Source: Escherichia phage mutPK1A2. Taken from it: a stretch of 44,784 nucleotides of DNA. Location of the stretch: sequence record NC_047889.1; one strand, given 5' to 3'. The position numbers were made by a program, and so were the translations under genes. The notes below the pieces were generated by a model. It had not been told where the DNA came from. It saw only the letters and a program-made list of their open reading frames with translations, and made no database searches. This document shows, piece by piece, positions 6,341-41,057 of the stretch (position 1 is the first letter of the stretch; each line of letters opens with the position of its first letter).

Positions 6341-6363
6341 ATTTACCGGACACTATAGGAGAA
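6341..6363 (+). promoter_or_regulatory. Phage RNAP promoter ATTTACCGGACACTATAGGAGAA
   Basis: Matches the recurring consensus ATTTAC(T/C)GGACACTATAGAAG; GACACTATAG core as in SP6-class promoters. Confidence 0.7.
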
Positions 6364-6505
6364 ACCATCGGAGATGGGAAAGAGAAGGGAAGTTAAAGGA
6401 TATAAAGGTAGTAATAGGTATTAAAGGTTATATAGGTTACCTAGGAATACCTATTACCTTCCTCCTTCCTCTTATTACTACTTAGAGGAAGGGCAGACCT
6501 AGGTT

Positions 6506-6521
6506 GTCTCACATGTGAGAC
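6506..6521. repeat. 16-bp palindrome GTCTCACATGTGAGAC (copy 2)
   Basis: Exact copy, again directly upstream of a promoter-like element. Confidence 0.85.
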
Positions 6522-6526
6522 TTCGT

Positions 6527-6549
6527 ATTTACCGGACAGTATAGATAAG
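6527..6549 (+). promoter_or_regulatory. Degenerate promoter-like element ATTTACCGGACAGTATAGATAAG
   Basis: Two core substitutions (CAGTATAGAT vs CACTATAGAA); tandem with the promoter at 6341, reminiscent of the T7 phi1.1A/1.1B pair. Confidence 0.4.
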
Positions 6550-6574
6550 ACTAATTCACTTTGGAGATTTAACC

Positions 6575-6703
6575 ATGCGTAACTTTGAGAAGATGACCCG
6601 TAAAGCTAACCGTTTTGACATGGAAGAAGGGCAGACGAAAGGCAAGAAGCTGAATAAGCCTGTCCGTGACCGTGCATCTAAACGCGCTGCGTGGGAGTTC
6701 TAA
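6575..6703 (+). CDS. Small basic protein (42 aa), gene 1.1-like
   Basis: MRNFEKMTRKANRF... starts like my recollection of T7 gp1.1 and sits right after the RNAP gene; RBS GGAG; below the ORF-track size cutoff. Confidence 0.5.
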   Translation: MRNFEKMTRKANRFDMEEGQTKGKKLNKPVRDRASKRAAWEF

Positions 6704-6706
6704 GTT

Positions 6707-8695
6707 ATGACTATTATTCAGAATGTACCGTGTCCTGCCTGTCAAAAGAATGGACATGATATTACTGGCAACCATCTTATGATATTTGAGGATGGCGCTG
6801 GTTACTGTAACCGTGGTCACTTCCATGATAACGGTAAGCCTTATTACCATAAGCCAGAGGGTGGCATCGAGATAACCGAATTGCCTATTACTGGCAATAT
6901 TAAATATACACCTTCTCAGTTTAAAGAGATGGAGAAGGAAGGGAAGATTAGCGACCCTAAGCTACGCGCCATCGCACTTGGTGGTATGCGTATGAAAGAC
7001 CGTTGGGGGGTTATGAATGAGCAAGAAAGGGCAGACCAAGAAGCAGAGTGGAAACTTGATGTTGAATGGTTCCTCACGCTTAAGCGTAAGAACCTTGTAT
7101 CCCGTCACATTCGAGGTGACATCGCAGCAATGTACGATGTGCGCGTTGGACACGATGAAGAGGGAAGAGTCAACCGTCACTATTATCCACGATATGAAAA
7201 GGGTGTGCTTGTTGGAGCAAAATGCCGGACGTTGCCGAAGGATTTTAAGTTCGGACACCTAGGTAAACTCTTTGGTATGCAAGATCTTTTCGGGATGAAT
7301 ACTTTGTCTCACGTGTTAGACAAGGGAAGACGAAAGGATTGCTTGCTTATTGTGGGCGGCGAACTGGATGCACTAGCAGCACAGCAAATGCTCCTTGATT
7401 CTGCCAAGGGTACTAAGTGGGAAGGCCAGCCTTATCATGTATGGTCTGTCAACAAAGGCGAGTCTTGCCTTGAAGAGATAGTGCAGAACCGTGAGCATAT
7501 CGCCCAATTCAAGAAGATTATATGGGGTTTTGATGGAGATGAGGTAGGGCAGAAGCAGAATCAGCAAGCGGCTCGCCTGTTTCCTGGCAAATCCTATATC
7601 CTTGAATACCCATCTGGTTGCAAAGATGCTAACAAGGCATTGATGGCTGGCAAGGCTAAAGAGTTTGTTGATGCTTGGTTTAATGCCAAGTCATCTGATG
7701 AAGTCTTTGGTAGCCAGATTAAATCTATCGCATCTCAAAGGGATAAGCTCAAGGCTGCACGTCCAGAGCAAGGGCTATCATGGCCTTGGCCTAAGCTGAA
7801 CAAGGTAACGCTAGGTATTCGTAAGAACCAGCTTATCATTGTAGGTGCAGGCTCTGGTGTAGGTAAGACTGAGTTCCTCCGCGAAGTGGTTAAACATCTT
7901 ATTGAAGAACACGGTGAATCTGTAGGCATCATTTCTACAGAAGACCCGATGGTCAAGGTGTCCCGTGCTTTTATCGGTAAGTGGATTGATAAGCGCATTG
8001 AGTTACCGCCAACCAATGACCCGAAAGAAGACGGATACCGTGAGGTGTTCGACTACACCGAGGAAGAAGCTAACGCTGCCATTGATTATGTGGCTGATAC
8101 AGGAAAGCTATTTGTGGCTGACCTAGAAGGCGACTATTCTATGGAGAAGGTAGAGCAAACTTGCCTAGAGTTTGAGGCTATGGGCATTTCTAATATCATC
8201 ATTGATAACTTAACGGGGATTAAATTAGATGAGCGTGCTTTTGGTGGGAAGGTTGGTGCACTTGATGAATGCGTCAAACGAATTGGTACTATCAAAGACC
8301 GACATGCGGTTACGATTTTCCTTGTCTCTCACCTTACACGTCCTCCGGCAAACCGTACCCAACACGAAGAAGGTGGCGAAGTTATCCTTTCTGACTTCCG
8401 AGGCTCAGGCGCTATCGGATTCTGGGCATCTTACGCCTTGGGGATTGAGCGTAATACAAGAGCTGAAACGCTTGATGAAAGGACTACCACGTACATCTCG
8501 TGTGTCAAAGACCGCGACCAAGGAATCTACACTGGAACCAAGGTCATGCTTAAGGGTGACATTCAAACCGGACGTTTAATGGAACCACAAGCCCGTACTA
8601 AGTCATTTGATACAGGTGAAGCAAGGCAACAAGAAGTACCTGATTTACCTGACACTATAGAAGGGACTAACTTCGATGAAGAAAGTGAGTTCTGA
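6707..8695 (+). CDS. DNA primase/helicase (T7 gp4-like)
   Basis: 662 aa; N-terminal Cys zinc-binding region (CPACQ...CNRGH), Walker A GAGSGVGKT, acidic C-terminus ending EESEF. Confidence 0.9.
   Translation: MTIIQNVPCPACQKNGHDITGNHLMIFEDGAGYCNRGHFHDNGKPYYHKPEGGIEITELPITGNIKYTPSQFKEMEKEGKISDPKLRAIALGGMRMKDRWGVMNEQERADQEAEWKLDVEWFLTLKRKNLVSRHIRGDIAAMYDVRVGHDEEGRVNRHYYPRYEKGVLVGAKCRTLPKDFKFGHLGKLFGMQDLFGMNTLSHVLDKGRRKDCLLIVGGELDALAAQQMLLDSAKGTKWEGQPYHVWSVNKGESCLEEIVQNREHIAQFKKIIWGFDGDEVGQKQNQQAARLFPGKSYILEYPSGCKDANKALMAGKAKEFVDAWFNAKSSDEVFGSQIKSIASQRDKLKAARPEQGLSWPWPKLNKVTLGIRKNQLIIVGAGSGVGKTEFLREVVKHLIEEHGESVGIISTEDPMVKVSRAFIGKWIDKRIELPPTNDPKEDGYREVFDYTEEEANAAIDYVADTGKLFVADLEGDYSMEKVEQTCLEFEAMGISNIIIDNLTGIKLDERAFGGKVGALDECVKRIGTIKDRHAVTIFLVSHLTRPPANRTQHEEGGEVILSDFRGSGAIGFWASYALGIERNTRAETLDERTTTYISCVKDRDQGIYTGTKVMLKGDIQTGRLMEPQARTKSFDTGEARQQEVPDLPDTIEGTNFDEESEF
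8643..8665 (+). promoter_or_regulatory. Phage promoter ATTTACCTGACACTATAGAAGGG inside the 3' end of the primase/helicase gene
   Basis: Good consensus match; T7-like phages often embed promoters in the ends of genes. Confidence 0.6.
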
Positions 8696-8716
8696 TTAGT
8701 GTATTTATTAGGGCTT

Positions 8717-8732
8717 GTCTCACATGTGAGAC
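8717..8732. repeat. 16-bp palindrome GTCTCACATGTGAGAC (copy 3, extended stem CTTGTCTCACATGTGAGACAGG)
   Basis: Exact core with extended complementary arms, followed by CTCTTATT. Confidence 0.85.
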
Positions 8733-8771
8733 AGGCTCTTATTAAGTATATTAAATAACTGGAGATTGATT

Positions 8772-9494
8772 ATGTATAAATTAGTATTGAATGCAGGTGA
8801 TTATGTTCGTAACATCAATGAAGCCTCACGTCGTTATCGTTGCCGTGGTGTAGTGGATCGTGTAAGTGAGAACATGTATCATGTAGAATATGATGATGGT
8901 GTTAAGGCTTCTTATCACAAGAAAACTGCACATAAATATCTTGAAAAGGTTGTAGAGGTAAACAATCAATGTAAGTGCATACATGATGAGGTTTGCGATA
9001 AGTGCAGACGTCAGGCAATTAAAGCCTTTACCTTTGCTCAACGCTATGGCTCTATGTATGGTACTGGTCACAAGACCCTTGCAGAAGCAGCTTGGAAGAC
9101 ATTGCAGTTTGAGCATTCAAATGGACGACGCACCACACTTAAGAAAGAGCGCCGCAATGTAATCACTGGTAAGACTCAAAGTGAGATGATTAAGCAATGT
9201 GGCACTGCATTAGGTGTTACACAGTTTAATACTCGTGCATTGGGTAAATCCACAGGACAAGCTATGGTAAAGATTGGCGAAGCCATGATGCATCCAAATG
9301 TACCTGTGCGAATCATGGATGTTGACCATGCAATCACAGAACAAGGTACGCAACGACGTGTAATTAATAAGCATTTTGCCGACACTATAGAAGGTATTAT
9401 TCGTAAGCAAGGGTTGAAAGGTCTTCACATCTTAAATGGTGAAGAATTACTGTACCTACCTATCGTTACTGAAGAAACCTACGTGAATATCTAA
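8772..9494 (+). CDS. Hypothetical protein (240 aa) with Cys cluster CKCIHDEVCDKC
   Basis: ORF track (first ATG at 8772, RBS GGAG); between primase and DNA polymerase. Confidence 0.6.
   Translation: MYKLVLNAGDYVRNINEASRRYRCRGVVDRVSENMYHVEYDDGVKASYHKKTAHKYLEKVVEVNNQCKCIHDEVCDKCRRQAIKAFTFAQRYGSMYGTGHKTLAEAAWKTLQFEHSNGRRTTLKKERRNVITGKTQSEMIKQCGTALGVTQFNTRALGKSTGQAMVKIGEAMMHPNVPVRIMDVDHAITEQGTQRRVINKHFADTIEGIIRKQGLKGLHILNGEELLYLPIVTEETYVNI
9373..9395 (+). promoter_or_regulatory. Weaker promoter-like element ATTTTGCCGACACTATAGAAGGT inside a CDS
   Basis: Core GACACTATAGAAGG conserved; upstream half diverges from consensus. Confidence 0.4.
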
Positions 9495-9504
9495 GGAGTT
9501 AATC

Positions 9505-9723
9505 ATGACTAAGGTATTAATTTATATGCGTGGACCTCATAAATGCTATGCAGTTGTAGCACCAGATGGTGTTAAGCCCTATGGTACTTCAAAAGGATTG
9601 GCATTAATAGGTGCTAGTCGTAGTGCAAGTTTCCAAATGGAACTTTTTGGTCATTGGACTGAATGGCAATTCCGTGAGGATTTTAAAGTCATTGGCAGCT
9701 TCATGGTGAAACATGCAAAATAA
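9505..9723 (+). CDS. Hypothetical protein (72 aa)
   Basis: ORF track; strong RBS TAAGGAG. Confidence 0.55.
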   Translation: MTKVLIYMRGPHKCYAVVAPDGVKPYGTSKGLALIGASRSASFQMELFGHWTEWQFREDFKVIGSFMVKHAK

Positions 9724-9922
9724 ACATAGTCTTAAAATGTTCGATGGTCATGAAGACCTGCAAGCCAAGATTACTAACCAAGCCTTCCTGTTTGCACAGC
9801 TAACTATGGCTGAAGCAAAGAAGAATAGCCTGACGCGCGAGCAAGTTATCAAAGAGGCAACTTGGGAGCCACACCAAGGCAAATACATGGGCCAGAAATT
9901 AACTGTAACACGCAGTCGATAA
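9713..9922 (+). CDS. Hypothetical protein (69 aa)
   Basis: ORF track; overlaps the previous gene by 11 nt; start uncertain. Confidence 0.4.
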   Translation: MQNKHSLKMFDGHEDLQAKITNQAFLFAQLTMAEAKKNSLTREQVIKEATWEPHQGKYMGQKLTVTRSR

Positions 9923-9932
9923 GTAAAGGGTT

Positions 9933-9948
9933 GTCTCACACGTGAGAC
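9933..9948. repeat. Palindrome variant GTCTCACACGTGAGAC (copy 4)
   Basis: One central substitution (CACGTG for CATGTG); follows an ORF stop and is followed by CCTTTC. Confidence 0.8.
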
Positions 9949-9979
9949 AGCCTTTCATCATATTGATTGGAGGTGCATT

Positions 9980-10087
9980 ATGTCACGTGATTATGATTCT
10001 GATTGGGATTTCCAAGATTCAATGAACTCAAAACCTGAACGTTCAGATGACTACTACGAAACAGAGGCAATGTATGAAAGCTATTAA
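9980..10087 (+). CDS. Small acidic protein (35 aa)
   Basis: RBS GGAGGT 7 nt before ATG; short, so tentative. Confidence 0.35.
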   Translation: MSRDYDSDWDFQDSMNSKPERSDDYYETEAMYESY

Positions 10088-10292
10088 AGTCAGTAAGGTT
10101 TGCTCTTGCGGTAAAGGTTATCGCAGTCGTATTGATGGTAAGTGTGGGCATTGCAGGTCTAAGAAAGAGGCTGCTTTGTTTGATAAGTACCACAATGAAT
10201 TAGCATATAACTATCCTCATCTAACACCTAATTCTTTATTAGGACTTGGTTATAGGGTTAAATACTTTGGAGCAATCTATGAAATCAATTGA
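10074..10292 (+). CDS. Small zinc-ribbon-like protein (72 aa; CxC...CxxC)
   Basis: In-frame ATG at 10074 with GAGG upstream inside track ORF 10047..10292; four Cys in VCSCGKG...CGHC; overlaps the DNAP start by 14 nt. Confidence 0.45.
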   Translation: MKAIKVSKVCSCGKGYRSRIDGKCGHCRSKKEAALFDKYHNELAYNYPHLTPNSLLGLGYRVKYFGAIYEIN

Positions 10293-12991: not shown

Positions 12992-13014
12992 ATTTACTGG
13001 ACACTATAGAAGGA
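12992..13014 (+). promoter_or_regulatory. Phage promoter ATTTACTGGACACTATAGAAGGA
   Basis: Exact consensus copy. Confidence 0.75.
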
Positions 13015-13465: not shown

Positions 13466-13761
13466 TGGAAGAAGTGATTCAAGCTAAACATGTAGGTATC
13501 ATCTTTCGTGATCTAGAGCAGCGTAAAGTTGCAGGTCATACCCGTTTGGCTAAAGAAGATGATACAGCAATCACTACTGTTGAACAAGCAGATGCCTATC
13601 GTGGTCCAGAGTTTACTCAAGGTGAAACTTGTCACCAATTGAGCCTATCACTTTGTGACACCATGGCTATTGTAAATGTGCAAGAAGTTGAAGAAGGTGA
13701 GTGTGTCAGTTACATCTACCCTTTAGATACTATTGCACGCATTAAGGTAATCCATAAGTAA
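13462..13761 (+). CDS. Hypothetical protein (99 aa)
   Basis: ORF track; RBS AAGGAG; start overlaps the previous stop. Confidence 0.55.
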   Translation: MMEEVIQAKHVGIIFRDLEQRKVAGHTRLAKEDDTAITTVEQADAYRGPEFTQGETCHQLSLSLCDTMAIVNVQEVEEGECVSYIYPLDTIARIKVIHK

Positions 13762-13783
13762 TTACTGGACACTATAGAACAAT
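13759..13783 (+). promoter_or_regulatory. Phage promoter (AATTACTGGACACTATAGAACAA)
   Basis: Consensus core; followed by a roughly 190-bp structured leader with several hairpins before a strongly expressed gene. Confidence 0.7.
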
Positions 13784-13974
13784 AGGATGTGGGTTTGTCG
13801 GAGACAGTAAAGCCAAGGTGCTCAGTGAGCGTAAAGCCTAAGCACGTCCTATGATTGTAAAGTGTTGATGTTGAACCCTTGTGCATCTTGCACAACCCGA
13901 TACTATATCGGGCTTTCTAGTGAGTACATGCTTGTGCTCAGTACAAAGCTAACTGACAATAGGAGACTAAATAA

Positions 13975-14781
13975 ATGGCACGTGGTGATTTTGATTTTGG
14001 TGCTCAGATTACTAAATCTGAAGGTAAAGTCTTTAAGAATCCAGAAGTAGGTGATCATGAAGCAGTAATCTCTGGCATCATTCATGTTGGTTCCTTCCAA
14101 GACATCTTTAAGAAAGGTAATACCACTGAAGTTAAGAAGCCAGCAAACTTTGTTCTGGTTAAGATTGTCCTGATGGGTGACGATGACAAGAACGAAGATG
14201 GTTCTCGCATGGAACAATGGATGGCTGTGCCTCTGAAGTCTGGTGATAAGGCAACACTGACTAAGTTCCTGAATGCAGTTGACCCTAAAGAGTTGCTGGG
14301 TGGCTTCGATGATTTCATTGGTGAATGCCTGACTGCAACGATGGTTGGTTCTGGTGACAAGAATGACGATGGCTCATTCAAGTATGTTAACTGGAAAGGT
14401 TTCGGTGGTATGCCGGACAAGCTGAAGAAACTTGTCATTGCTCAGGTTGAAGAAGAAGGTCTGTCGATGACAGGTCACATCACCTTCGACAAACTGACCA
14501 AAGAAATCCTTGATGATATTCCTGCTAACTTGGTGCGTCAATACTTCCTTAACGAGACGCCTCGTGGTAAGAACATGTCTGTTTCTGGTTCTCACGTAGA
14601 AGCAATCATCAAAGCTGCTCGCGAAGAAGACCCAGAGTGGAAGAAGGCTAAGAAGAAAGAAGAGGAAGATGCTACCCCAGCTAATCGTAAATCTCTGGCT
14701 ACTGGTGAGTCTGTTCCGCAGGAAGTACCTGAAGCAGAAGATACTCCTGCACCGGAGATGGATGAGGACGCGGAATATTAA
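13975..14781 (+). CDS. Putative ssDNA-binding protein (gp2.5-like)
   Basis: 268 aa; own promoter and structured leader; acidic C-terminal tail ending DEDAEY as in T7 gp2.5; no direct similarity verified. Confidence 0.4.
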   Translation: MARGDFDFGAQITKSEGKVFKNPEVGDHEAVISGIIHVGSFQDIFKKGNTTEVKKPANFVLVKIVLMGDDDKNEDGSRMEQWMAVPLKSGDKATLTKFLNAVDPKELLGGFDDFIGECLTATMVGSGDKNDDGSFKYVNWKGFGGMPDKLKKLVIAQVEEEGLSMTGHITFDKLTKEILDDIPANLVRQYFLNETPRGKNMSVSGSHVEAIIKAAREEDPEWKKAKKKEEEDATPANRKSLATGESVPQEVPEAEDTPAPEMDEDAEY

Positions 14782-15041: not shown

Positions 15042-15064
15042 ATTTACTGGACACTATAGAAGAG
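15042..15064 (+). promoter_or_regulatory. Phage promoter ATTTACTGGACACTATAGAAGAG
   Basis: Exact consensus. Confidence 0.75.
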
Positions 15065-17198: not shown

Positions 17199-18198
17199 GC
17201 TTCGCAGCTTGTACAAAGACTCCGAGGTACTTGATGCAATCGAGCAAGCTACCGACGAGAAAGGTAATGTTAACTACAATGAGATGGCACGTGTATTATC
17301 GTGTCATCCTGTGGGTAAGAAGATTACCCGCCAGTTGGCTCGATACTGGCATGGTCAATTCAAGAAGACCAAGAAGAATGGTGATTACTATCAGACTCTT
17401 CTGCAAGAGGATCGGCGCATCAAAGAAGGGCGTAAGCTCAGGACTCCTGACCGTTACGAGGATTTGGCTGTTGTACCATTGCCTGACTCGCCTCATCGAA
17501 GTGTACTGGTAATCCCTGATACTCATGCACCTTATGAGCACCCAGATACCTTAGGGTTCCTTGCAGCAGTGGCAGCACGTTACCGTCCAGACACAGTGGT
17601 ACATCTCGGAGATGAAGCAGATAAACACGCCCTCTCCTTCCACGACTCTGATCCAAATCTGGATAGTGCTGGGGTGGAATTGGAGAAGGCTCGTGTCTTT
17701 ATGCATAAGCTGCATAAGATGTTTCCTGTGATGCGCCTGTGTCATTCTAATCACGGCTCTATGCACTTCCGTAAGGCAAGCGCCAAAGGTATTCCTGTAC
17801 AATATCTGCGTACCTATCGTGAAGTCTTCTTTCCGCATGGGGGTGGCGACCAGTGGGATTGGCAGCATACACACGTTCTTGAGTTGCCGAATGGTGAACA
17901 GGTTGCATTTAAGCATCAACCCGCAGGCTCAGTCTTAGCAGATGCAGCGCATGAGCGCATGAACTTAGTGTGCGGTCACTTGCATGGTAAGATGTCGGTG
18001 GAGTATGCACGTAATACACATGAACAGTATTGGGCTGTGCAGGGCGGCTGTTTGATTGATGAGTCATCTCGTGCATTTGCCTATGGTCGTGAGTCCAAAT
18101 ACAAGCCAGCATTAGGTTGTGTGGTTATTCTGGAGGGTGTGCCGCACATTGTCCCGATGCAGACCAATAGTGATAATCGCTGGATTGGTAAGATTTAG
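17191..18198 (+). CDS. Calcineurin-like metallophosphoesterase
   Basis: Motifs VIPDTHAP (DxH), HLGDEAD (GDxxD), CHSNHGS (GNH-like), GHLHG; start placed at TTG 17191 behind AAGGAGG (track ATG 17056 would overlap the resolvase by 143 nt); start is uncertain. Confidence 0.65.
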   Translation: MGKLRSLYKDSEVLDAIEQATDEKGNVNYNEMARVLSCHPVGKKITRQLARYWHGQFKKTKKNGDYYQTLLQEDRRIKEGRKLRTPDRYEDLAVVPLPDSPHRSVLVIPDTHAPYEHPDTLGFLAAVAARYRPDTVVHLGDEADKHALSFHDSDPNLDSAGVELEKARVFMHKLHKMFPVMRLCHSNHGSMHFRKASAKGIPVQYLRTYREVFFPHGGGDQWDWQHTHVLELPNGEQVAFKHQPAGSVLADAAHERMNLVCGHLHGKMSVEYARNTHEQYWAVQGGCLIDESSRAFAYGRESKYKPALGCVVILEGVPHIVPMQTNSDNRWIGKI

Positions 18199-18215
18199 TT
18201 GACACTATAGAACAA
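18193..18215 (+). promoter_or_regulatory. Phage promoter ATTTAGTTGACACTATAGAACAA
   Basis: Closest of all copies to the classical SP6 promoter ATTTAGGTGACACTATAGAAG. Confidence 0.65.
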
Positions 18216-23393: not shown

Positions 23394-23409
23394 TCAGTAT
23401 TTACTGGAC

Positions 23410-23432
23410 ACTATAGAAGGGAGAAATGTCTC
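23410..23432 (+). promoter_or_regulatory. Phage promoter ATTTACTGGACACTATAGAAGGG (capsid promoter)
   Basis: Exact consensus, directly upstream of the major capsid gene. Confidence 0.8.
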
Positions 23433-31556: not shown

Positions 31557-31572
31557 GTCTCACATGTGAGAC
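31557..31572. repeat. 16-bp palindrome GTCTCACATGTGAGAC (copy 6, extended stem)
   Basis: Exact core with flanks CTT...AGG, followed by TCTTTAT. Confidence 0.85.
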
Positions 31573-34600: not shown

Positions 34601-34912
34601 ATGGGTATGATGAGTACAACTGCTGTATTTAGTCTAGGTGGAGATTTCTTAGGTGGCCTAGGTGTTCTACCTTCCGAACTCATTCAATCACGCTATGAAG
34701 CAGGTTTCCAAAGTAAGGGTCTGATTGACCAAATACCTCTGGTTGGCGTTGGTGCAGATGCAGTAAATCTGGCTAATTCAATCAAGAGGTATGCAGAAGG
34801 TGACACAGAAGGTGTAGATGTCGCTAAGCGAGCACTTCGTCTTGTGCCACTAACTAATGTAATAGGTGTCCAAAACGCATTGCGTTATGGCTTAGATGAA
34901 CTGGAGGATTGA
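31604..34912 (+). CDS. Large internal virion (core/ejection) protein
   Basis: 1102 aa; RBS GGAGG; position and size consistent with T7 gp15/gp16-class core proteins. Confidence 0.75.
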   Translation: MEQDIKTNWAGYVQSTPEPFSIEAAPVSAPTIRQRNELQEQVLEAKADADILGAVGAAFQNEWLAFGGKRWYDRATADFTPQPDFEIQPEQREALRFKYGTDMMQTITEGVRSEDELNFRIQNADEDLERNKRIAQAGWVGSVATIGAAVLDPVGWVASIPTGGAAKVGLVGRAVRGAIAAGVSNAAIESVLVQGDMTRDLDDIMVALGSGMAMGGVIGAVARGRATKLSEQGDDRAASIVRSADAGDRYVRAVADDSIGAMRVKGEEVLTEGAFDISSKGEDLLKILQREGNAIDMTPRRWAGTMSALGTVVHSSQDASVRGLGARLFESPQGLGMQKASASLMQNTNLNRLKSADMNRFNDGFDLWLKENNINPVAGHTNSHYVQQYNEKVWEAVRIGMDESTPKSIRMAAEGQQAMYREALALRQRSGEAGFEKVKADDKYMPDIFDSMKARRQFGMHDKEDIIELFSRAYQNGSRKVPKEVADEIARAQVNRVVDATLTGRMSFEKAMSGQTKAEYEAIMRKAGFSDEEIEKMVEALDNKETRDNISNRAKMSLGLDVTQEYNGIRMRDFMNTNVEELTDNYMKEAAGGAALARQGFSTYQAALNAIDLVERNARNAAKDTKAHAQFEAESAKIRQSEPDYKKAQEKIEELKKRLKLKEKDEAAGLAIDEEIRQMREGLRLIMGKSIDADPQALSTKMLRRGRDITGVLRLGQMGFAQLGELANFMGEFGIAATTIALGKQFRFTSKALRSGDGFFRDKNLAEVERMVGYIGEDNWLTTKGARPDEFGDVTTVRGMMAHFDQSMNSIRRAQTNLSLFRMAQGSLERMTNRQIALSFIDHLEGKRIIPQKKLEELGLTQEFMTNLQKHYDANSKGSGLLGFDTMPYAMGETLANAIRRKSGIIIQRNFIGDEGIWMNKALGKTFAQLKSFSLVSGEKQFGRGIRHDKIGLAKKTAYGFALGSIVYAAKAYVNSIGREDQDEYLEEKLSPKGLAFGAMGMMSTTAVFSLGGDFLGGLGVLPSELIQSRYEAGFQSKGLIDQIPLVGVGADAVNLANSIKRYAEGDTEGVDVAKRALRLVPLTNVIGVQNALRYGLDELED

Positions 34913-35874
34913 TGAGTTATACTTTCACAGAACATATAGCCAACGGTACGCAAGTTACCTATCCCTTTAGCTTTGCTGGTAGGGATAAAGGTTATCTTCG
35001 TGCCTCAGATGTGATAGTGGAATCTCTTCAAGGTAACACTTGGATTGAGGTTACATCTGGCTGGCAATTAACTGGTACGCATCAAATCACTTTTGATGTA
35101 GCACCCGTTGCAGGTTTGAAGTTCCGTATTCGAAGGGAAGTACAAAAGGAATATCCATACGCTGAGTTTGACCGTGGTGTTACCTTGGATATGAAGTCTT
35201 TAAATGGTTCTTTCATTCATATACTGGAGATTACACAGGAGTTACTTGATGGGTTTTATCCAGAAGGATACTTCATTAAGCAGAATGTAAGCTGGGGCGG
35301 CAATAAGATTACTGACCTAGCTGATGGTGAGAATCCAAAAGATGCAGTAAATAAATCACAGCTAGATGCTATCGACAAGAAGCATACTGATTGGAACTCT
35401 GCACAAGACATAGAGATTGCTGGTATTAAGAGAGGGATGGTGTCTGGTGTATCGCATCGCACTATCCCTTGGTATATGGTCGCCTCCGGTGGAGAGCAAA
35501 TCATTCGACCACCTTACTCATTTGATGATGCTATGGTGTTTATAAACGGTGTATTCCAGCATGAACTAGCAGGTGCAGTATCAGTGGGGTATGATGTTAT
35601 AACCCTGTCCGAGCCATTACAGGCTGGGGATGAAGTTTATGTGCTTATCGGTAGTCGCTTAACCCCACCTACAAGTGCGGATACTATCCTCTTTACACAA
35701 GCAGTGAGTGAAGGTACACAATCTATCGACATTGTAACGGCTTTCCAACGTCTTGATGTATATTTAGATGGCCTGTATCAACCTAATAATGCTTATGAAA
35801 TCGTAGGGTCTACTATCACTTTCAGTGAGCCATTACCTGAGTGTGTCGTAAGTATGAAGTTACAACTAGTGTAA
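34912..35874 (+). CDS. Tail fiber-like adaptor protein (T7 gp17 N-terminal domain homolog)
   Basis: 320 aa from ATG 34912; N-terminal pattern resembles the T7 gp17 tail-attachment domain; short length fits an adaptor that carries separate tailspikes. Confidence 0.65.
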   Translation: MSYTFTEHIANGTQVTYPFSFAGRDKGYLRASDVIVESLQGNTWIEVTSGWQLTGTHQITFDVAPVAGLKFRIRREVQKEYPYAEFDRGVTLDMKSLNGSFIHILEITQELLDGFYPEGYFIKQNVSWGGNKITDLADGENPKDAVNKSQLDAIDKKHTDWNSAQDIEIAGIKRGMVSGVSHRTIPWYMVASGGEQIIRPPYSFDDAMVFINGVFQHELAGAVSVGYDVITLSEPLQAGDEVYVLIGSRLTPPTSADTILFTQAVSEGTQSIDIVTAFQRLDVYLDGLYQPNNAYEIVGSTITFSEPLPECVVSMKLQLV

Positions 35875-35883
35875 GGAGGTGCA

Positions 35884-36078
35884 ATGATTAACTCCGAACT
35901 GGTAGATAGTGGTGTGAAGCTGGCGCCACCTGCATTAGTATCAGGTGGGTACTTCCTCGGTATCAGTTGGGATAATTGGGTGTTAATAGCAACATTCATT
36001 TATACCGTGTTGCAAATTGGAGACTGGTTTTATAATAAGTTCAAGATTTGGAGGGAGAAGCGTGAGCGTACACAATAA
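35884..36078 (+). CDS. Holin (T7 gp17.5-like)
   Basis: 64 aa; RBS AAGGAGGTG; LGISWDNWVLIATFIYTVLQIG resembles T7 holin FGLSLNEWFYVAAIAYTVVQIG; one TM helix and a basic C-terminus. Confidence 0.7.
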   Translation: MINSELVDSGVKLAPPALVSGGYFLGISWDNWVLIATFIYTVLQIGDWFYNKFKIWREKRERTQ

Positions 36079-36361
36079 ACATGCAGCTACAGAGGATGAG
36101 GTTGGCATTCTGCATGGTGCTATTACCAAGATGTTCAACAAGAAAGCACAGGCAATACTGGACACTATAGAAGGGGATCCAGATGCAGCACTGGCTTTAG
36201 TGTCCGGTAAGGACATTGGAGCTATGTGTAAGTGGGTACTGGATAATGGCATCACTGCTACACCTGCTGCACAGCAGGAAGAATCCAAGTTATCTAAGCG
36301 CCTCAAGGCTATCCGAGAGGCATCAAGTGGCAAGATTATTCAGTTTACAAAAGAGGAGTAA
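36062..36361 (+). CDS. Putative terminase small subunit
   Basis: About 100 aa from GTG 36062 behind GGAGGG (track start 36017 is TTG inside the holin gene); upstream of large terminase. Function by position only. Confidence 0.45.
   Translation: MSVHNKHAATEDEVGILHGAITKMFNKKAQAILDTIEGDPDAALALVSGKDIGAMCKWVLDNGITATPAAQQEESKLSKRLKAIREASSGKIIQFTKEE
36154..36176 (+). promoter_or_regulatory. Promoter-like element AATACTGGACACTATAGAAGGGG inside the small terminase gene
   Basis: Core CTGGACACTATAGAAGG conserved; would drive HNH and large terminase. Confidence 0.5.
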
Positions 36362-36364
36362 GAG

Positions 36365-36697
36365 ATGATAAAGCAGATAGAGGAGGAAGGATATACAATA
36401 CTGCCGGAAGGTGTGATTCTTAGTAAGAGAAAACAACCTATGCGGTTTAGTGTTAACCATAAAGGCTATGCACGTATTGGTTTGATGCTAAAAGGCAAGC
36501 AACGCTTCTTCTATCTGCACGTCATTATTGCTACTAAATTCTGTAAGAAGCTACCACACCATACTCAAGTTAATCATAAAGATGGCAATAAATTGAATAA
36601 CGCTAAAGATAACTTAGAGTGGTGTACTGCTAGCGAAACATACTGCACAAATACCATGGAGACATACAAGGAGATATTACTTTGTACTCTAAGATGA
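36365..36697 (+). CDS. HNH endonuclease (homing-endonuclease type)
   Basis: 110 aa; HKGYARIGL...FFYLHVIIATKF...VNHKDGNKLNNAKDNLEWCTASE is the HNH_3-type motif pattern; strong RBS AGGAG. Confidence 0.8.
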   Translation: MIKQIEEEGYTILPEGVILSKRKQPMRFSVNHKGYARIGLMLKGKQRFFYLHVIIATKFCKKLPHHTQVNHKDGNKLNNAKDNLEWCTASETYCTNTMETYKEILLCTLR

Positions 36698-36795
36698 AAG
36701 AACTAAGAGCTGTAGGAATGACCTATAAGCAGATAGCACAGAGCTTAAATGTAAGTGTGGCTACCGTGTTTAAACATTGTAAGGCAGGTGATTGA
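36694..36795 (+). CDS. Small helix-turn-helix ORF (33 aa), possibly the detached DNA-binding tail of the HNH endonuclease
   Basis: MKELRAVGMTYKQIAQSLNVSVATVFKHCK reads as an HTH; its ATG overlaps the HNH stop (ATGA) in the -1 frame and its stop overlaps the large terminase start. Confidence 0.4.
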   Translation: MKELRAVGMTYKQIAQSLNVSVATVFKHCKAGD

Positions 36796-38693
36796 TGGCT
36801 AAGGCAAGAGAATCACAAGCAGAGGCTCTTGCCAGATGGGAGATGCTACAGGAATTACAGCAGACCTTTCCTTACACAGCGGAAGGTTTGCTTCTCTTTG
36901 CAGATACAGTTATTCATAACTTGATTGCAGGCAAACCTCATCTGATTCGTATGCAGGCCGATATTTTAAAGTTTCTATTCTATGGACATAAATATCGCCT
37001 CATCGAAGCGCCCCGTGGCATCGCTAAAACTACACTATCAGCAATCTATACTGTTTTCCGTATCATCCATGAACCCCATAAGCGTATCATGGTAGTGTCC
37101 CAAAACGCCAAGCGAGCAGAGGAAATTGCAGGTTGGGTAGTGAAAATCTTCCGTGGCCTAGACTTCCTTGAGTTTATGCTACCGGACATATACGCTGGCG
37201 ACCGTGCATCAGTCAAAGCATTTGAGATTCACTACACGTTACGCGGCAGCGATAAGTCACCTTCTGTATCCTGTTACTCTATCGAAGCAGGTATGCAGGG
37301 TGCTCGTGCTGATATTATTCTAGCAGATGACGTAGAATCGATGCAGAATGCTCGTACAGCAGCAGGCCGCGCCTTGCTTGAGGAGTTGACCAAGGAGTTT
37401 GAATCTATTAACCAATTTGGTGACATCATCTACCTTGGGACGCCTCAGAACGTAAACTCTATCTACAATAACTTACCTGCTCGTGGTTACTCGGTTCGTA
37501 TCTGGACCGCACGTTATCCTTCAGTAGAGCAAGAGCAATGTTATGGTGACTTCCTTGCACCTATGATTGTGCAGGATATGAAAGACAACCCAGCACTTCG
37601 CTCTGGTTATGGGTTAGACGGTAACAGTGGTGCACCTTGCGCACCTGAAATGTACGATGATGAAGTGCTGATTGAGAAGGAAATCTCTCAGGGTGCGGCT
37701 AAGTTCCAGCTTCAGTTTATGCTTAATACTCGCATGATGGATGCTGACCGCTATCCGCTACGCCTGAATAACCTCATCTTCACTTCATTCGGTACAGAGG
37801 AAGTCCCTGTGATGCCTACATGGAGCAACGACTCTATTAACATCATTGGCGATGCACCGAAGTATGGCAATAAGCATACAGACTTTATGTATCGCCCTGT
37901 GGCCCGACCTTATGAGTGGGGTGCTGTTACCCGCAAGATTATGTATATTGACCCCGCAGGTGGCGGTAAGAACGGGGATGAAACTGGTGTGGCTATCGTC
38001 TTCCTGCACGGCACATTCATTTATGTGTATCAGTGCTTTGGTGTGCCGGGAGGATACCGCGAATCGTCCCTGAATCGCATTGTGCAGGCCGCAAAGCAGG
38101 CAGGTGTTAAAGAGGTATTCATTGAAAAGAACTTTGGTCATGGCGCGTTTGAGGCCGTTATAAAGCCATACTTTGAACGAGAGTGGCCTGTGACTCTGGA
38201 GGAAGATTACGCCACCGGACAGAAAGAGTTGCGTATCATTGAAACACTAGAGCCACTAATGGCGGCCCACAGGCTCATCTTCAACGCAGAGATGGTCAAG
38301 TCTGATTTTGAGTCGGTACAGCACTATCCGCTTGAACTACGCATGTCATACAGCCTTTTCAATCAAATGTCGAACATCACGATTGAGAAGAACAGCCTAC
38401 GACACGATGACCGCTTAGACGCTCTGTATGGCGCTATACGGCAATTAACTTCTCAGATAGACTATGACGAGGTTACACGGATTAATCGCCTCAGAGCGCA
38501 GGAGATGCGCGATTACATCCATGCTATGAACACACCTCACCTCCGTAGGGCAATGCTCTATGGAGATTATGGCACTGAGCGAAGAGTAACCAACACTTCC
38601 GTGGCTATGCAGCAAAGAGTATACGGTCAGAATTACAGGAGTAAATCGGCAAGCAGAAATACACTTTCTGCAAGGATTTCAAGGACTTATTAA
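36795..38693 (+). CDS. Terminase large subunit
   Basis: 633 aa; Walker A-like APRGIAKTT; size and position typical of T7 gp19. Confidence 0.85.
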   Translation: MAKARESQAEALARWEMLQELQQTFPYTAEGLLLFADTVIHNLIAGKPHLIRMQADILKFLFYGHKYRLIEAPRGIAKTTLSAIYTVFRIIHEPHKRIMVVSQNAKRAEEIAGWVVKIFRGLDFLEFMLPDIYAGDRASVKAFEIHYTLRGSDKSPSVSCYSIEAGMQGARADIILADDVESMQNARTAAGRALLEELTKEFESINQFGDIIYLGTPQNVNSIYNNLPARGYSVRIWTARYPSVEQEQCYGDFLAPMIVQDMKDNPALRSGYGLDGNSGAPCAPEMYDDEVLIEKEISQGAAKFQLQFMLNTRMMDADRYPLRLNNLIFTSFGTEEVPVMPTWSNDSINIIGDAPKYGNKHTDFMYRPVARPYEWGAVTRKIMYIDPAGGGKNGDETGVAIVFLHGTFIYVYQCFGVPGGYRESSLNRIVQAAKQAGVKEVFIEKNFGHGAFEAVIKPYFEREWPVTLEEDYATGQKELRIIETLEPLMAAHRLIFNAEMVKSDFESVQHYPLELRMSYSLFNQMSNITIEKNSLRHDDRLDALYGAIRQLTSQIDYDEVTRINRLRAQEMRDYIHAMNTPHLRRAMLYGDYGTERRVTNTSVAMQQRVYGQNYRSKSASRNTLSARISRTY

Positions 38694-38714
38694 TTACCGG
38701 ACACTATAGAAGGA
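38692..38714 (+). promoter_or_regulatory. Phage promoter AATTACCGGACACTATAGAAGGA
   Basis: Consensus core immediately after the terminase stop; followed by an AT-rich TAGGT-repeat leader and hairpin GGGTGTAC-TCCT-GTACACCC. Confidence 0.7.
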
Positions 38715-38845
38715 AGGCCCAGATAATAAGAGAAATAACAAGGATAATATAGGTTAACCTAGGTTATATAGGTATTCCTTAGTATGGGTGTACTCCTGTA
38801 CACCCTATTCCTTACTTCCTTACTATATTAACTATAATAGGAGAT

Positions 38846-39127
38846 ATGATGGCTAATGAGTACAGCAATCAGCCTTTAACAGGCCGATATGACAGAAAAC
38901 AAGTACAACCAGTTAGTGAACACTTAATGGTCCCAAGTGTTAACACTAATATTGATCTATACAACCCAGCAAAACAGGCTAGTGTTATTAATGATACCAC
39001 AAAGTCCGGTAAGCAACTCGGAGCTATGCTTGTAACAGAAATGGGTGTCCTGATGCTAGCCCGTGGAGGTGAACCCACAAGCAAGTGGGACCAGACAAAG
39101 ACATCAGAGATTATTGTTCCAGCCTAA
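38846..39127 (+). CDS. Paralog family member 1 (93 aa), unknown function
   Basis: RBS AGGAG; shares the motif SGKQ-x-GAM-V...L..AR...P.S.WD with the next ORF. Confidence 0.6.
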   Translation: MMANEYSNQPLTGRYDRKQVQPVSEHLMVPSVNTNIDLYNPAKQASVINDTTKSGKQLGAMLVTEMGVLMLARGGEPTSKWDQTKTSEIIVPA

Positions 39128-39143
39128 TAAGAGGAGAAAAGAT

Positions 39144-39431
39144 ATGCCTAAGTATGGAGATGCAAACACTGTAACAGGTCAGTCCTTCCGTGTTAAAGAT
39201 GTTCAAACTATTGCAACTGCACTGCCATTGCCTGTGGTAGCAGAGGCAGACCTTAAATCTAAAGCACACCCAATTAACATCCACCATCTTTCGGGTAAAC
39301 AAAAAGGAGCCATGGTTGCGGTACAGAAAGCAGAGGGATCGCTATATATCGCTGTAGCACGAGATGCACTACCTGAATCTCCGTGGGATGCCACTACAAT
39401 GGAAGGTACCGCTGTTACGCCAGCGGGGTAA
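39144..39431 (+). CDS. Paralog family member 2 (95 aa), unknown function
   Basis: ATG 39144 with RBS AGGAG; contains HLSGKQKGAMVAVQKAEGSLYIAVARDALPESPWD. Confidence 0.6.
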   Translation: MPKYGDANTVTGQSFRVKDVQTIATALPLPVVAEADLKSKAHPINIHHLSGKQKGAMVAVQKAEGSLYIAVARDALPESPWDATTMEGTAVTPAG

Positions 39432-39438
39432 TATTATC

Positions 39439-40116
39439 ATGTTAGGTATTACAGGACAACGAAGTTTAAGTCATCAATCAAAGGTTGCCACGGAAGTGGC
39501 TCCTATTGTTGATATCTCAGAGGTGTCTGACGTTAACTCTTATCTAAACCAAAAGCACCTATCAGGTAAACAGGAAGACTATACTGTTCTGGCTAAGAAA
39601 GGTTCACGTTATTCATTGTATGCTGCAACAGGTTCTAAGCCAGAAGATAAGTGGTTGCCTTTAGAGCAAGCAACCCTACCTGATTCGAGTGCGTTAGATC
39701 TAATTGACACCATCGATGTTGAAGTTGCAAGTGCAAGCGACACAGTAGAGGTTAATGTAACCAAAGAGGGGACTGTGTGCATCCAGACGCCTATGAAGGG
39801 CTTAGCAGGTGATACAGTTTACCGGCAAGAATTGACTGCCAATATTAACCTTACCATTAATGAAAACGGAAGCCAAAGCGATACGGTTAAATTAAACATA
39901 TCAATTCCTAATTTGCCAGGAACATCTAGTGGTTCTTACTATACAGTTGACAATGTGCTGTGTACTTCTTTTGGAGACGACAGTCCTGTTATTGCCAATA
40001 TAGATGTCGATAAGGCTACCACTAACTTGATTGCTGTTACACTTCGTAAAGAGACGGCAACAGACATTAAGCTGTCTCTTGTAATTAGGTGGTCAATGCC
40101 AGTGGAGGTTGTATAA
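39439..40116 (+). CDS. Paralog family member 3 (225 aa; paralogous N-domain plus C-terminal extension)
   Basis: ATG 39439 (track start 39364 overlaps the upstream gene); N-terminal region has the same TGQ...HLSGKQ...WLP architecture. Confidence 0.55.
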   Translation: MLGITGQRSLSHQSKVATEVAPIVDISEVSDVNSYLNQKHLSGKQEDYTVLAKKGSRYSLYAATGSKPEDKWLPLEQATLPDSSALDLIDTIDVEVASASDTVEVNVTKEGTVCIQTPMKGLAGDTVYRQELTANINLTINENGSQSDTVKLNISIPNLPGTSSGSYYTVDNVLCTSFGDDSPVIANIDVDKATTNLIAVTLRKETATDIKLSLVIRWSMPVEVV

Positions 40117-40460
40117 TGCTTAACAAGTACTTCAAGCGTAAAGAGTTTGCTTGCCGTTGTGGGTGCGGTACATCCACTGTTGATGCTGAGTTATTACAGG
40201 TAGTCACAGATGTACGTGAGCACTTTGGTGCTCCTGTAGTTATTACTTCTGGACACCGCTGTGCTAAGCACAATGCTAATGTGGGAGGTGCTAAGAACTC
40301 CATGCATCTTACTGGTAAGGCTGCTGACATTAAGGTACAAGGTACTACACCTTACCGTGTATGGTCCTATCTAACAGCACGCTACCCCAATAAATATGGC
40401 ATTGGGTCTTATTCTAATTTCACCCACATTGATGTAAGAGAGGGATGTGCACGATGGTAA
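40116..40460 (+). CDS. Endolysin, M15-family zinc peptidase
   Basis: 114 aa from ATG 40116 (RBS GGAGGT); the FKRKEFACRCGCG...SGHRC...H...D pattern is characteristic of M15 peptidase endolysins. Confidence 0.75.
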   Translation: MLNKYFKRKEFACRCGCGTSTVDAELLQVVTDVREHFGAPVVITSGHRCAKHNANVGGAKNSMHLTGKAADIKVQGTTPYRVWSYLTARYPNKYGIGSYSNFTHIDVREGCARW

Positions 40461-40585
40461 GATGTATTGAATGGTGCGAGCGCAGGGTTGCTCAAGCTGC
40501 CGAGGATGGCAACTATGATGACTGGAAGAACTACTCTGACTTGTTAGCTCAATGGAAAAGGAGATGCAATGAAAAAGCTGTTTAA
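40454..40585 (+). CDS. Small hydrophilic ORF (43 aa)
   Basis: ATG overlapping the endolysin end; weak SD; short. Confidence 0.25.
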   Translation: MVRCIEWCERRVAQAAEDGNYDDWKNYSDLLAQWKRRCNEKAV

Positions 40586-40718
40586 GTCTAAGAAAGTGGT
40601 AGGTGCACTGGTTGCACTGGTGATTGCTCTTGTTTCTGTAGGTCTTGGCGTAGACCTAGGTGAAGGTACGGAAGGCTCCGTCACCGACGTGGTATGCCAA
40701 GTAATCACCTGTGAATAA
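40569..40718 (+). CDS. Small membrane protein (49 aa, one TM helix), lysis-associated candidate
   Basis: Strong RBS AAAAGGAG; MKKLFKSKK then hydrophobic VVGALVALVIALVSVGLGV then acidic tail; lies in the lysis cassette. Confidence 0.4.
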   Translation: MKKLFKSKKVVGALVALVIALVSVGLGVDLGEGTEGSVTDVVCQVITCE

Positions 40719-40932
40719 GGTGCTAGAGGTGGTAGTAGGTCTTATTGGCCTGCTGCTTGCCGCTAAGAAGAAGAAGGAAGAGAAGGAGGCACAAAGTGAG
40801 GCGAATCATGCTAGCGACAATCCTGCTGATTGGTTCGCTGATCACTTCAGGGTGTCAGACGGCGTTACCAGAGAATCCAAAGGTGAAGCCTCTGAAGCCG
40901 ACGCTTACGGCAGTCTACGAGGTGGACGATAA
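40711..40932 (+). CDS. Small TM protein ORF, i-spanin-like candidate (start uncertain, GTG 40711/40729)
   Basis: Hydrophobic N-terminus VVGLIGLLLAA then a charged region; a lipoprotein ORF is embedded in another frame, as in Rz/Rz1 pairs; short for an i-spanin. Confidence 0.3.
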   Translation: MNKVLEVVVGLIGLLLAAKKKKEEKEAQSEANHASDNPADWFADHFRVSDGVTRESKGEASEADAYGSLRGGR

Positions 40933-41005
40933 AGTCTGTTTCAGTAAGCCTGACGCTACAAAATTAGGTCTGTATATTCTCTCGCTAGAACGCGGGTATA
41001 ATTAA
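40808..41005 (+). CDS. Putative o-spanin-like outer-membrane lipoprotein (Rz1-like)
   Basis: ATG 40808 with GAGG upstream; MLATILLIGSLITSGC has a lipobox-like TSGC; Pro-rich mature region; overlaps the previous ORF out of frame. Confidence 0.4.
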   Translation: MLATILLIGSLITSGCQTALPENPKVKPLKPTLTAVYEVDDKVCFSKPDATKLGLYILSLERGYN

Positions 41006-41034
41006 TACATAATTTTATGTATCAGTGTCTTACG

Positions 41035-41057
41035 ATTTACTGGACACTATAGAAGAG
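41035..41057 (+). promoter_or_regulatory. Phage promoter ATTTACTGGACACTATAGAAGAG (tailspike promoter)
   Basis: Exact consensus upstream of the tailspike region. Confidence 0.75.

Follow-up and report, generated by a model that had tools for sequence, protein, structure and literature searches.

The 44,784-nt stretch analyzed here (the window), from Escherichia phage mutPK1A2 (NC_047889.1), raises the question of whether a phage whose polymerase had been described as "SP6-type" uses promoters of a different specificity. The initial annotation, made from the sequence alone, had noticed about twelve elements of the form ATTTAC(T/C)GGACACTATAGAAG between positions 6341 and 41057, in which the upstream specificity region departs from that of the classical SP6 promoter, and had suggested a natural promoter-specificity variant. 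We found that the window comprises a whole Vectrevirus (K1E-like) phage genome, with terminal repeats of 286 bp and a nucleotide identity of about 95% to K1E, and that the elements are very probably the middle and late promoters of this K1E/K1-5-like coliphage, read by its own T7-family RNA polymerase (RNAP) encoded at 3621-6248. Judged by sequence comparison, they are real, in all probability functional, and already known promoters, which represent the normal, catalogued state of the genus and are not peculiar to this genome.

Number, composition, and placement of the elements

A scan of the whole window with ATTTACYGGACACTATAGAAG, allowing no more than 3 mismatches, returned 12 matches, all on the + strand (6341, 6527, 8643, 9373, 12992, 13760, 15042, 18193, 23399, 36153, 38692, and 41035), compared to 0 matches over 100 dinucleotide-preserving shuffles used as a control. 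Four of the matches are exact copies (12992, 15042, 23399, and 41035). With one further element at 2337, the family comprises 13 + strand elements of 21 bases each, 12 of which fall in the interval 6341-41057, as the original count had it. The end of that interval lies 2 bases beyond the last match (41035-41055), a trivial offset. Near-matches to the core on the minus strand, at 41378, 36212, and 5745, are without the upstream consensus and were rejected as promoters, and an Rfam search of the whole window gave no match.

When the G of GAAG is taken as +1, a count matrix of the 13 copies shows that GACA at -9 to -6 and TATA at -4 to -1 are invariant, while -5 has a single C-to-G exception, at 6527. 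Variation is found at -12 (C in 10 copies and G in 3), -11 (T in 7 and C in 6), and -10 (G in 9, T in 3, and C in 1), so that -11 is occupied by pyrimidines only, with G in 0 of 13. The sequence ATTTA stands at -17 to -13 in 8 of the 13 copies. The elements thus have the features of T7-family promoters, namely, the core CACTATAG from -7 to +1 with an AT-rich segment from -17 to -13, many gene-adjacent copies that are co-oriented with the genes (13/13 on the + strand), and a cognate single-subunit RNAP in the same genome (gene 3621..6248). Each promoter would consist of 17 bp that serve for recognition and melting (-17 to -1) and, after them, a start of the form G(A/G)A(G). The promoters would point along the genes, each immediately 5' of a gene or within the final codons of the preceding one. 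In the window, each element lies 20 to 330 nt 5' of a gene start or over the preceding stop codon.

The first element, ATTTAGCTGACACTATAAGAG (2337..2357), which has an A at +1, is located in the early region, over the end of the gp4 homologue and 5' of gp6 and the RNAP gene. Its orthologues, with TATA followed by AGAG or AGAT, occur in K1E, K1-5, SP6, UAB_Phi78, SE29, Koku, L028, L030, L031, BS375, and Erwinia S2, and their upstream specificity bases are those of their own genus. A terminator-like hairpin is found at 6256-6279, upstream of the promoter ATTTACCGGACACTATAGGAG (6341..6361), which the scan places 93 nt 3' of the RNAP stop codon (orthologues at K1E 6824, K1-5 6020, and SP6 6118). 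The off-consensus promoter ATTTACCGGACAGTATAGATA (6527..6547), with G at -5, lies about 30 nt 5' of the gp8 homologue, and its counterparts at the corresponding site of K1E (7008), K1-5 (6204), and Proteus phage PM93 (6594) share the -5 G variant. It is followed by ATTTACCTGACACTATAGAAG (8643..8663) within the 3' end of the primase/helicase gene and 5' of gp10, ATTTTGCCGACACTATAGAAG (9373..9393) within the gp10 3' end and 5' of gp10.5, the consensus promoter ATTTACTGGACACTATAGAAG (12992..13012) 3' of the DNA polymerase gene and gp14 and 5' of gp15, and AATTACTGGACACTATAGAAC (13760..13780) over the gp15.5 stop codon and 5' of gp16. A second consensus promoter (15042..15062) lies 5' of gp18, ATTTAGTTGACACTATAGAAC (18193..18213) lies over the gp22 stop codon and 5' of gp23, and a third consensus copy (23399..23419) separates the scaffold gene from the major capsid gene. 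The last three are CAATACTGGACACTATAGAAG (36153..36173) within the small terminase gene, 5' of an HNH open reading frame and the large terminase gene; AATTACCGGACACTATAGAAG (38692..38712) over the large terminase stop codon, 5' of gp41/42-like genes; and a consensus copy (41035..41055) 5' of a gp46 remnant and the endosialidase tailspike gene (orthologues at K1E 41717, K1-5 39265, and SP6 39910).

Elements that are dispersed through a phage genome could instead be signals for replication, packaging, or recombination, but we consider this extremely improbable here, since the core exactly matches the one defined experimentally for SP6 and T7, the elements are strictly co-oriented with genes at gene-proximal sites that are orthologous to SP6 promoters, and they covary with the RNAP loop across genera (see below). 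In addition, a K1E-type sequence acts as a promoter in vitro (PMC13029058).

Comparison with K1E, K1-5, and SP6 promoters

K1E, K1-5, and SP6 are annotated in GenBank without promoter features, and the promoters of these phages were re-derived by scanning their genomes (the records compared date from 2006 for K1E and 2004 for K1-5). The promoters of K1-5, K1E, and SP6 were reportedly first described and listed by Scholl 2004 (J Mol Biol), Stummeyer 2006 (Mol Microbiol), Dobbins 2004 (J Bacteriol), and Scholl 2002, and saturation mutagenesis of the SP6 promoter was reportedly described by Shin 2000 (PNAS). The promoters of the K1E and K1-5 (Vectrevirus) gp7 polymerases have the same consensus, ATTTACTGGACACTATAGAAG, as those of the window and the same 13 orthologous positions, with one-to-one correspondence at all 13 sites and matching flanks. 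The off-consensus copies are shared as well: the element that precedes the RNAP gene has A at +1, and one that follows the gene has G at -5. What separates the genomes is confined to single bases in particular copies, such as CCT at 8643 in the window versus CCG at K1E 9342, or CTA at K1-5 13352. On promoter sequence, the elements belong with the K1E/K1-5 subclass, which has C-Y-G at -12 to -10 with a pyrimidine at -11.

The comparison with SP6 (Zindervirus) upheld much of the original description. The SP6 consensus given there is correct, as the SP6 genome (L003) has ATTTAGGTGACACTATAGAAG, and all of its promoters carry G at -11. The downstream half is identical from -9 to +1, as are -17 to -13 and the start region, and the sites are orthologous; the upstream specificity region differs, with GGT at -12 to -10 in SP6 versus CYG in the window. 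In the orthologous SP6 promoters the flanks are kept and the triplet alone is changed. For example, the SP6 orthologue of 13760 is AATTAGGTGACACTATAGAACAATAGG (13005), with identical flanks and changes confined to -12 to -10, while those of 18193 and 23399 are ATTTAAGTGACACTATAGAACAAAGGG (17428) and ATTTAGGTGACACTATAGAAGGGAG (22413), respectively, and that of 15042 lies at 14286. The elements at 18193 (ATTTAGTTGACACTATAGAAC) and 2337 (ATTTAGCTGACACTATAAGAG) come closer to the SP6 form, as had been noticed, and so does the one at 8643 (beginning ATTTACCTG), but all three keep a pyrimidine at -11. The core from -7 to +1 and the AT-rich segment are common to both groups, and the consistent difference is at -11.

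The cognate polymerase and its specificity loop

The gene at 3621..6248 (+ strand) encodes a single-subunit phage RNAP of 875 amino acids (Pfam RNA_pol PF00940, 6e-89; RPOL_N, 1.4e-31), and T7 RNAP chains in the PDB match it at 4e-111; the PDB search found no SP6-family polymerase structure. By MAFFT alignment, the enzyme is 99.5% identical to K1E gp7 (4 residue differences) and 98.9% identical to K1-5 gp7 (10 differences), compared to 85.1% identity to SP6 RNAP (131 differences). In the sense that matters here, the label "SP6-type" must therefore give way to a K1E/K1-5 enzyme.

The specificity loop comprises residues 734 to 771 (38 amino acids; 5820..5933, + strand) and was aligned to T7 residues 735 to 772. 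Both MAFFT and phmmer equate R745, S747, K755, and S757 with T7 R746, N748, R756, and Q758, respectively, in an alignment to T7 RNAP of about 35% identity. These four T7 residues make base-specific contacts, as stated in a 2025 study (PMC11880802) that cites the T7 complex structure. K1E and K1-5 have this loop unchanged, and none of their RNAP differences from the window enzyme fall in it. SP6 RNAP has the same residues at the T7 R746, R756, and Q758 positions but carries Arg746 where the window has Ser747 (codon 5859-5861, + strand, from the gene translation), so the elements also differ from the classical SP6 class in their enzyme, and the proposed covariation of promoter and loop is borne out. 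The Lys and Ser at the T7 Arg756 and Gln758 positions are unchanged relative to SP6, and promoter bases -9 and -8 (G and A) are also unchanged.

A known parallel is T7 versus T3 discrimination (Asn748/Asp749), where close polymerase-promoter pairs likewise differ at this loop position and at promoter positions -11 and -10; T7 and T3 pair Asn and Asp with G and C, while SP6 and the K1E type pair Arg and Ser with G and Y. The initial annotation had made its proposal dependent on the nearest relatives not already having this consensus together with an identical loop. K1E and K1-5 have both, and the 2025 study places K1E and SP6 in separate polymerase-promoter specificity clusters by T7 positions 748, 756, and 758 (PMC11880802). 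The difference from SP6 is real, but it is already present in relatives, and it may represent a relaxation of specificity instead of a switch.

The -11 base and the loop residue across genomes

In genomes with an Arg loop (SP6 type; 9 loci), -11 is G in 81 of 81 promoters, while in those with a Ser loop (K1E type; 11 loci) it is C or T in 79 of 81, although these promoters are not independent observations, since they come from orthologous sites in related genomes. The other two Ser-loop promoters have G at -11, one being a perfect SP6 consensus (L009:2709), and A is found at none. Variation at -12 and -10 occurs in each clade. The -11 position holds the base that separates K1E-type from SP6-type promoters, and it tracks the loop residue at the T7 Asn748 position. 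The loop and the bases at -12 to -8 also shift together in further genera (PM93, BS375, Erwinia S2, and L028). A simple one-residue code, with Arg for G and Ser for a pyrimidine at -11, was rejected as a general rule because Arg is paired with A in PM93 and with T in BS375.

We infer that Arg in SP6-type enzymes, at the position where T7 Asn748 contacts -11 and -10, favors G at -11, that Ser in K1E-type enzymes would no longer demand it, and that the whole promoter set would have shifted together to C-Y-G after the Arg/Ser change. It is improbable, in our estimate, that the promoter difference is determined by residues other than Ser747, whether by E741D or D752E, by K68R, which lies in the AT-rich recognition loop, or by the segment that aligns with the intercalating hairpin and carries a 1-residue insertion. 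The 131 differences between the SP6 and window enzymes leave room for such residues; E741D, D752E, and 128 other substitutions cosegregate with R746S, the two loop changes segregate perfectly with promoter type, and PMC11880802 reports that K1E and SP6 key-residue triplets failed to transplant into T7 RNAP, the grafted residue/base combinations being inactive and outside the T7-derived rules. However, R-to-S is the only nonconservative loop change and lies at the position that contacts -10 and -11 in T7, the bases expected to be contacted by the unchanged Lys and Ser (-9 and -8) have not changed, and K68R has nothing to explain, since the AT-rich -17 to -13 segment is the same in both clades.

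A full-text literature search for the promoter sequence found only one paper (PMC13029058, 2026), in which an SP6-like RNAP, No. 2049, transcribes in vitro from TATTTACTGGACACTATAGGAGGA; for TATTTACTGGACACTATAGG, tested in vitro in that paper, the polymerase reads the SP6 promoter as well. No. 2049, which is classed as K1E type by its promoter consensus, gave a normalized signal of 3.5% on the SP6 promoter versus about 2% on its own K1E-type consensus. Unlike the T7/T3 pair, a K1E-type enzyme thus read the SP6 promoter, and K1E/SP6 combinations placed in T7 RNAP were inactive. The signal of No. 2049 on the SP6 promoter, the two Ser-loop promoters with -11 G, and the variability of -12 and -10 in both clades would fit an enzyme in which Ser747 leaves -11 and -10 without discrimination, so that C-Y-G is drift in a tolerated zone, the K1E enzyme reads SP6 promoters, and the systems are not orthogonal. 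We regard this as rather unlikely, since a free -11 should commonly give G and A, as opposed to the 79 pyrimidines in 81 promoters and the lack of A, and since the 13 orthologous sites changed in concert. Returning to the Arg/Ser change as the basis of the difference, we suggest tentatively that it may make recognition asymmetric, with K1E-type enzymes tolerating SP6 promoters and the SP6 enzyme rejecting K1E-type promoters, a reading that we did not find spelled out in the literature searched.

For K1E-type and SP6-type pairs, these data confirm a difference at -11 together with one loop residue. The K1E pair is already in use in biotechnology, where K1E RNAP and its promoter drive reporter expression in the C3P3 expression system, according to PMC6412113, and where it has entered in vitro transcription screens, besides forming its own cluster in the 2025 covariation study. 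A mildly useful addition is the natural count, 81/81 G versus 79/81 pyrimidines, with its hint of a Ser enzyme that is tolerant and not orthogonal, a tolerance that would be relevant when SP6 and K1E polymerases are used side by side. For the phage itself, a coliphage specific for the K1 capsule, the elements show where the transcription units lie, with little import beyond correct annotation. If asymmetric recognition is true, it would explain the survival of SP6-consensus promoters in Ser-loop genomes (L009:2709), the reverse of which is not seen (81/81 with -11 G), and a single residue would form a one-way compatibility barrier between cocirculating Vectrevirus and Zindervirus modules.

Genome context and gene content

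An exact 286-bp direct terminal repeat (1-286 = 44499-44784) shows that the window covers a complete, linear phage genome, with nucleotide identities of ~95% to coliphage K1E and 93 to 94% to K1-5, relatives placed in the genus Vectrevirus, subfamily Molineuxvirinae. K1E proteins mapped onto it gave a collinear gene map whose last gene encodes the endosialidase tailspike (41538-43973). The single-subunit RNA polymerase (RNAP; 875 amino acids, 3621-6248; Pfam RNA_pol, 6e-89; RPOL_N, 1.4e-31; T7 RNAP structures, 4e-111), which the initial annotation had called SP6-type, is K1E-type, with 99.5% identity to K1E gp7, 98.9% to K1-5 gp7, 85.1% to SP6 RNAP, and 35% to T7 RNAP.

The large terminase gene (36792-38693) is unbroken, whereas that of K1E is split (40A/40B) by a homing-endonuclease gene; a free-standing HNH endonuclease open reading frame (36365-36697, 110 amino acids; Pfam HNH_3, 5.5e-10) is placed between the genes for the small and the large terminase. 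At 41136-41467, a K1E gp46 homologue fills the slot of the K5 lyase gene of K1-5; the match breaks into two segments (41136-41273 and 41267-41467) with different reading frames, and the homologue looks like a frameshifted remnant. A K1E gp5 homologue was not found between the element at 2337 and gp6 (2354-2672), so the content of this ~320-nt stretch appears unlike that of K1E. For K1E gp1.5, gp2.5, gp8.5, gp9.5, and gp13.5, tblastn gave no match in the window.

The promoter set and neighboring signals

Scanning the window with up to 3 mismatches allowed, we found 12 matches to ATTTACYGGACACTATAGAAG, all + strand and spread over 6341-41055, and none in 100 dinucleotide-preserving shuffles. A scan with the SP6 consensus added a 13th element at 2337 and showed that 18193, 2337, and 8643 are the copies nearest the SP6 form, the first two of which had already been picked out as such. 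Every element follows the direction of the genes and lies directly 5' of a gene or over the final codons of the gene before it: 6341 and 6527 are 3' of the RNAP gene, others precede gp10, gp10.5, gp15, gp16, gp18, and gp23, 23399 is 5' of the major capsid gene, 36153 is within the gene for the small terminase and precedes that for the large one, 38692 is 3' of the terminase, and 41035 is 5' of the tailspike gene. When +1 is set at the G of GAAG, GACA at -9 to -6 and TATA at -4 to -1 do not vary among the 13 copies, and -5 is C in all except 6527, which has G. Position -12 is C in 10 copies and G in 3, -11 is T in 7 and C in 6 and never G or A, and -10 is G in 9, T in 3, and C in 1; the claim that the consensus differs from that of SP6 is correct as stated.

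In equivalent scans, the promoter sites correspond one-to-one across the window, K1E, K1-5, and SP6. K1E and K1-5 share the consensus ATTTACTGGACACTATAGAAG and both odd copies of the window, namely the early-region copy with A at +1 and the copy with G at -5 that follows the RNAP gene. In contrast, SP6 has GGT at -12 to -10 in orthologous places with the same flanks, as in the pair SP6 13005 (AATTAGGTGACACTATAGAACAATAGG) and window 13760 (AATTACTGGACACTATAGAACAATAGG). Given their placement and these shared sites and flanks, we assign the 13 elements as the promoters of a K1E-type phage for its own polymerase; on sequence comparison, the entire set has moved in concert relative to SP6.

The first odd copy (2337-2357; ...TATA AGAG/AGAT) has A for G at +1 and lies in the early region ~1.3 kb 5' of the RNAP gene. 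Similar A-start elements are present in SP6 (2104), K1E (2779), K1-5 (2014), and further related genomes or contigs (L025:2305, L020:2490, L021:25611, L028:8736, L030:2132, L031:2693, L023:45465, and L024:1628), that is, in all genera examined. Each carries its own genus's specificity bases, so the element co-evolves with the polymerase; it probably has a function, and could act as a weak feed-forward promoter driving gp6 and the RNAP gene. The second odd copy (6527-6547, ACAGTATA) is the second promoter downstream of the RNAP gene, and its G at -5 recurs at the matching site in K1E (7008), K1-5 (6204), and Proteus phage PM93 (6594, ACCAGTATA). Its conservation despite the departure from consensus suggests a promoter that is specialized or weak by design, perhaps like the promoter pair downstream of T7 gene 1 that serves the replication origin.

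A terminator-like hairpin (6256-6279; 10-bp stem with 6 G-C pairs, T-rich tail) immediately follows the stop codon of the RNAP gene and precedes the first phage promoter; it is probably where early host-polymerase transcription ends. We also found a perfect 16-bp palindrome, GTCTCACATGTGAGAC, that occurs 8 times in the window (0.23 expected), with exact copies at 6323-6338, 6506-6521, 8717-8732, and 31557-31572 and copies with 1 to 2 mismatches at 612, 7306, 9933, and 15011; several lie 2 to 15 nt 5' of phage promoters. Other Vectrevirus genomes have exact copies at the same places; the SP6 counterpart, present at three syntenic sites, reads GTCTAACATGTTGGAC. In the SP6 form, one C-G pair is replaced by A-T in a compensatory manner and a T-A becomes T-G, a pattern that fits an RNA hairpin, as a processing or stabilizing site, better than a DNA operator; the palindrome had no match in Rfam.

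Co-variation of specificity loop and promoter

The loop region aligned to T7 RNAP without gaps, with MAFFT and an independent phmmer alignment in agreement, and window residues R745, S747, K755, and S757 correspond to T7 R746, N748, R756, and Q758, which make base-specific contacts in the T7-promoter complex structure (PMC11880802). A PDB search found no SP6-family polymerase structures. The window loop, coded at 5820-5933, has the same sequence as the K1E and K1-5 loops. Relative to SP6, Arg746 to Ser is its only nonconservative change, at the T7 position reading -10/-11; E741D and D752E likewise co-segregate with promoter type. The residues expected to read -9/-8 are the same in SP6 and the window, as are the bases there (G and A).

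We then compared related genomes from GenBank and IMG/VR, counting promoters whose core is GACACTATA and whose upstream part is AT-rich. At the residue aligned to T7 Asn748, nine loci have Arg (SP6, UAB_Phi78, BP12B, SE29, Klebsiella phage Koku, and four metagenomic contigs) and 11 have Ser (the window, K1E, K1-5, ACG-C91, LL11, AAPEc6, and five contigs). Position -11 is G in 81/81 promoters of the Arg-loop loci and C or T in 79/81 promoters (G in 2/81) of the Ser-loop loci, counts that are non-independent, the genomes being akin and the sites orthologous. The association of Arg with G and of Ser with a pyrimidine is a fixed difference between the two clades.

Co-variation of loop and promoter appears broad, extending to more distant genera. 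With residues given for T7 748, 756, and 758, bases for -12 to -10, and the core from -9, the combinations are R, R, S with (G/A)AG and ACCACTATA in Proteus phage PM93; R, N, Y with (G/C)TG and GCGAGTATA in Klebsiella phage BS375; S, R, S with CCA and CCCAGTATA in Erwinia phage S2; and R, F, S with TGT and TGCACTATA in metagenomic contig L028. A simple one-residue code for -11 is out, since Arg is also paired with A or T there. L028 (IMG/VR 3300045988_000861) and contigs L030 and L031 represent additional SP6-family specificities: the L028 polymerase is 83% identical to that of the window, has Phe in place of the SP6/K1E Lys aligned to T7 R756, and is accompanied by TGTTGCACTATAG promoters with TG at -9/-8, while L030 and L031 have differing loops and the promoters GGGGCTACTATAG and GGGCGGACTATAG.

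Switched or relaxed specificity

We propose that an SP6-type Arg746 would read G at -11, that its change to Ser would lift the need for this G, and that the promoters would afterwards have settled on C-Y-G. Polymerase No. 2049 (>84% identity to SP6 RNAP; chosen promoter TATTTACTGGACACTATAGGAGGA) gave a normalized signal of 3.5% on the SP6 promoter versus ~2% on its own consensus (PMC13029058). Among Ser-loop genomes, the element at L009:2709 has G at -11 and is a perfect SP6 consensus (ATTTAGGTGACACTATAGAAG), and the one at 13788 in LL11 has a CGG triplet, again with G at -11. The No. 2049 signal and these G-bearing sites suggest that the Ser enzyme is tolerant, not strictly re-targeted; the two sites themselves would suggest module exchange with SP6-type phages combined with such tolerance. 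We looked for a base other than G at -11 in Arg-loop genomes and found none among 81 promoters at 9 loci. One-way compatibility, in which the Ser enzyme would accept either form of promoter but the Arg enzyme would read -11G alone, is a tentative reading that we consider somewhat doubtful. Residue/base combinations of K1E and SP6 gave no activity on grafting into T7 RNAP and had poor covariation-model scores (PMC11880802).

The initial annotation had raised the possibility of a natural promoter-specificity variant co-varying with the loop. The co-variation holds, and what it reflects may be a relaxation, not a switch, but the variant is not new: the nearest relatives, K1E and K1-5, have this consensus and an identical loop. 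Their genomes were deposited in 2004 to 2006, and Scholl et al. (2004) and Stummeyer et al. (2006) reportedly list the K1-5 and K1E promoters. In a 2025 study, cognate polymerase-promoter pairs extracted from phage genomes were sorted on two criteria, the residues at T7 748, 756, and 758 and the bases found at five positions of the promoter, and K1E and SP6 came out as separate clusters (PMC11880802). The C3P3 expression system is built on K1E RNAP and "the K1E promoter" (PMC6412113, PMC10908868). The promoter variant of the window is real and was correctly read in outline, and it is the known, genus-typical state.
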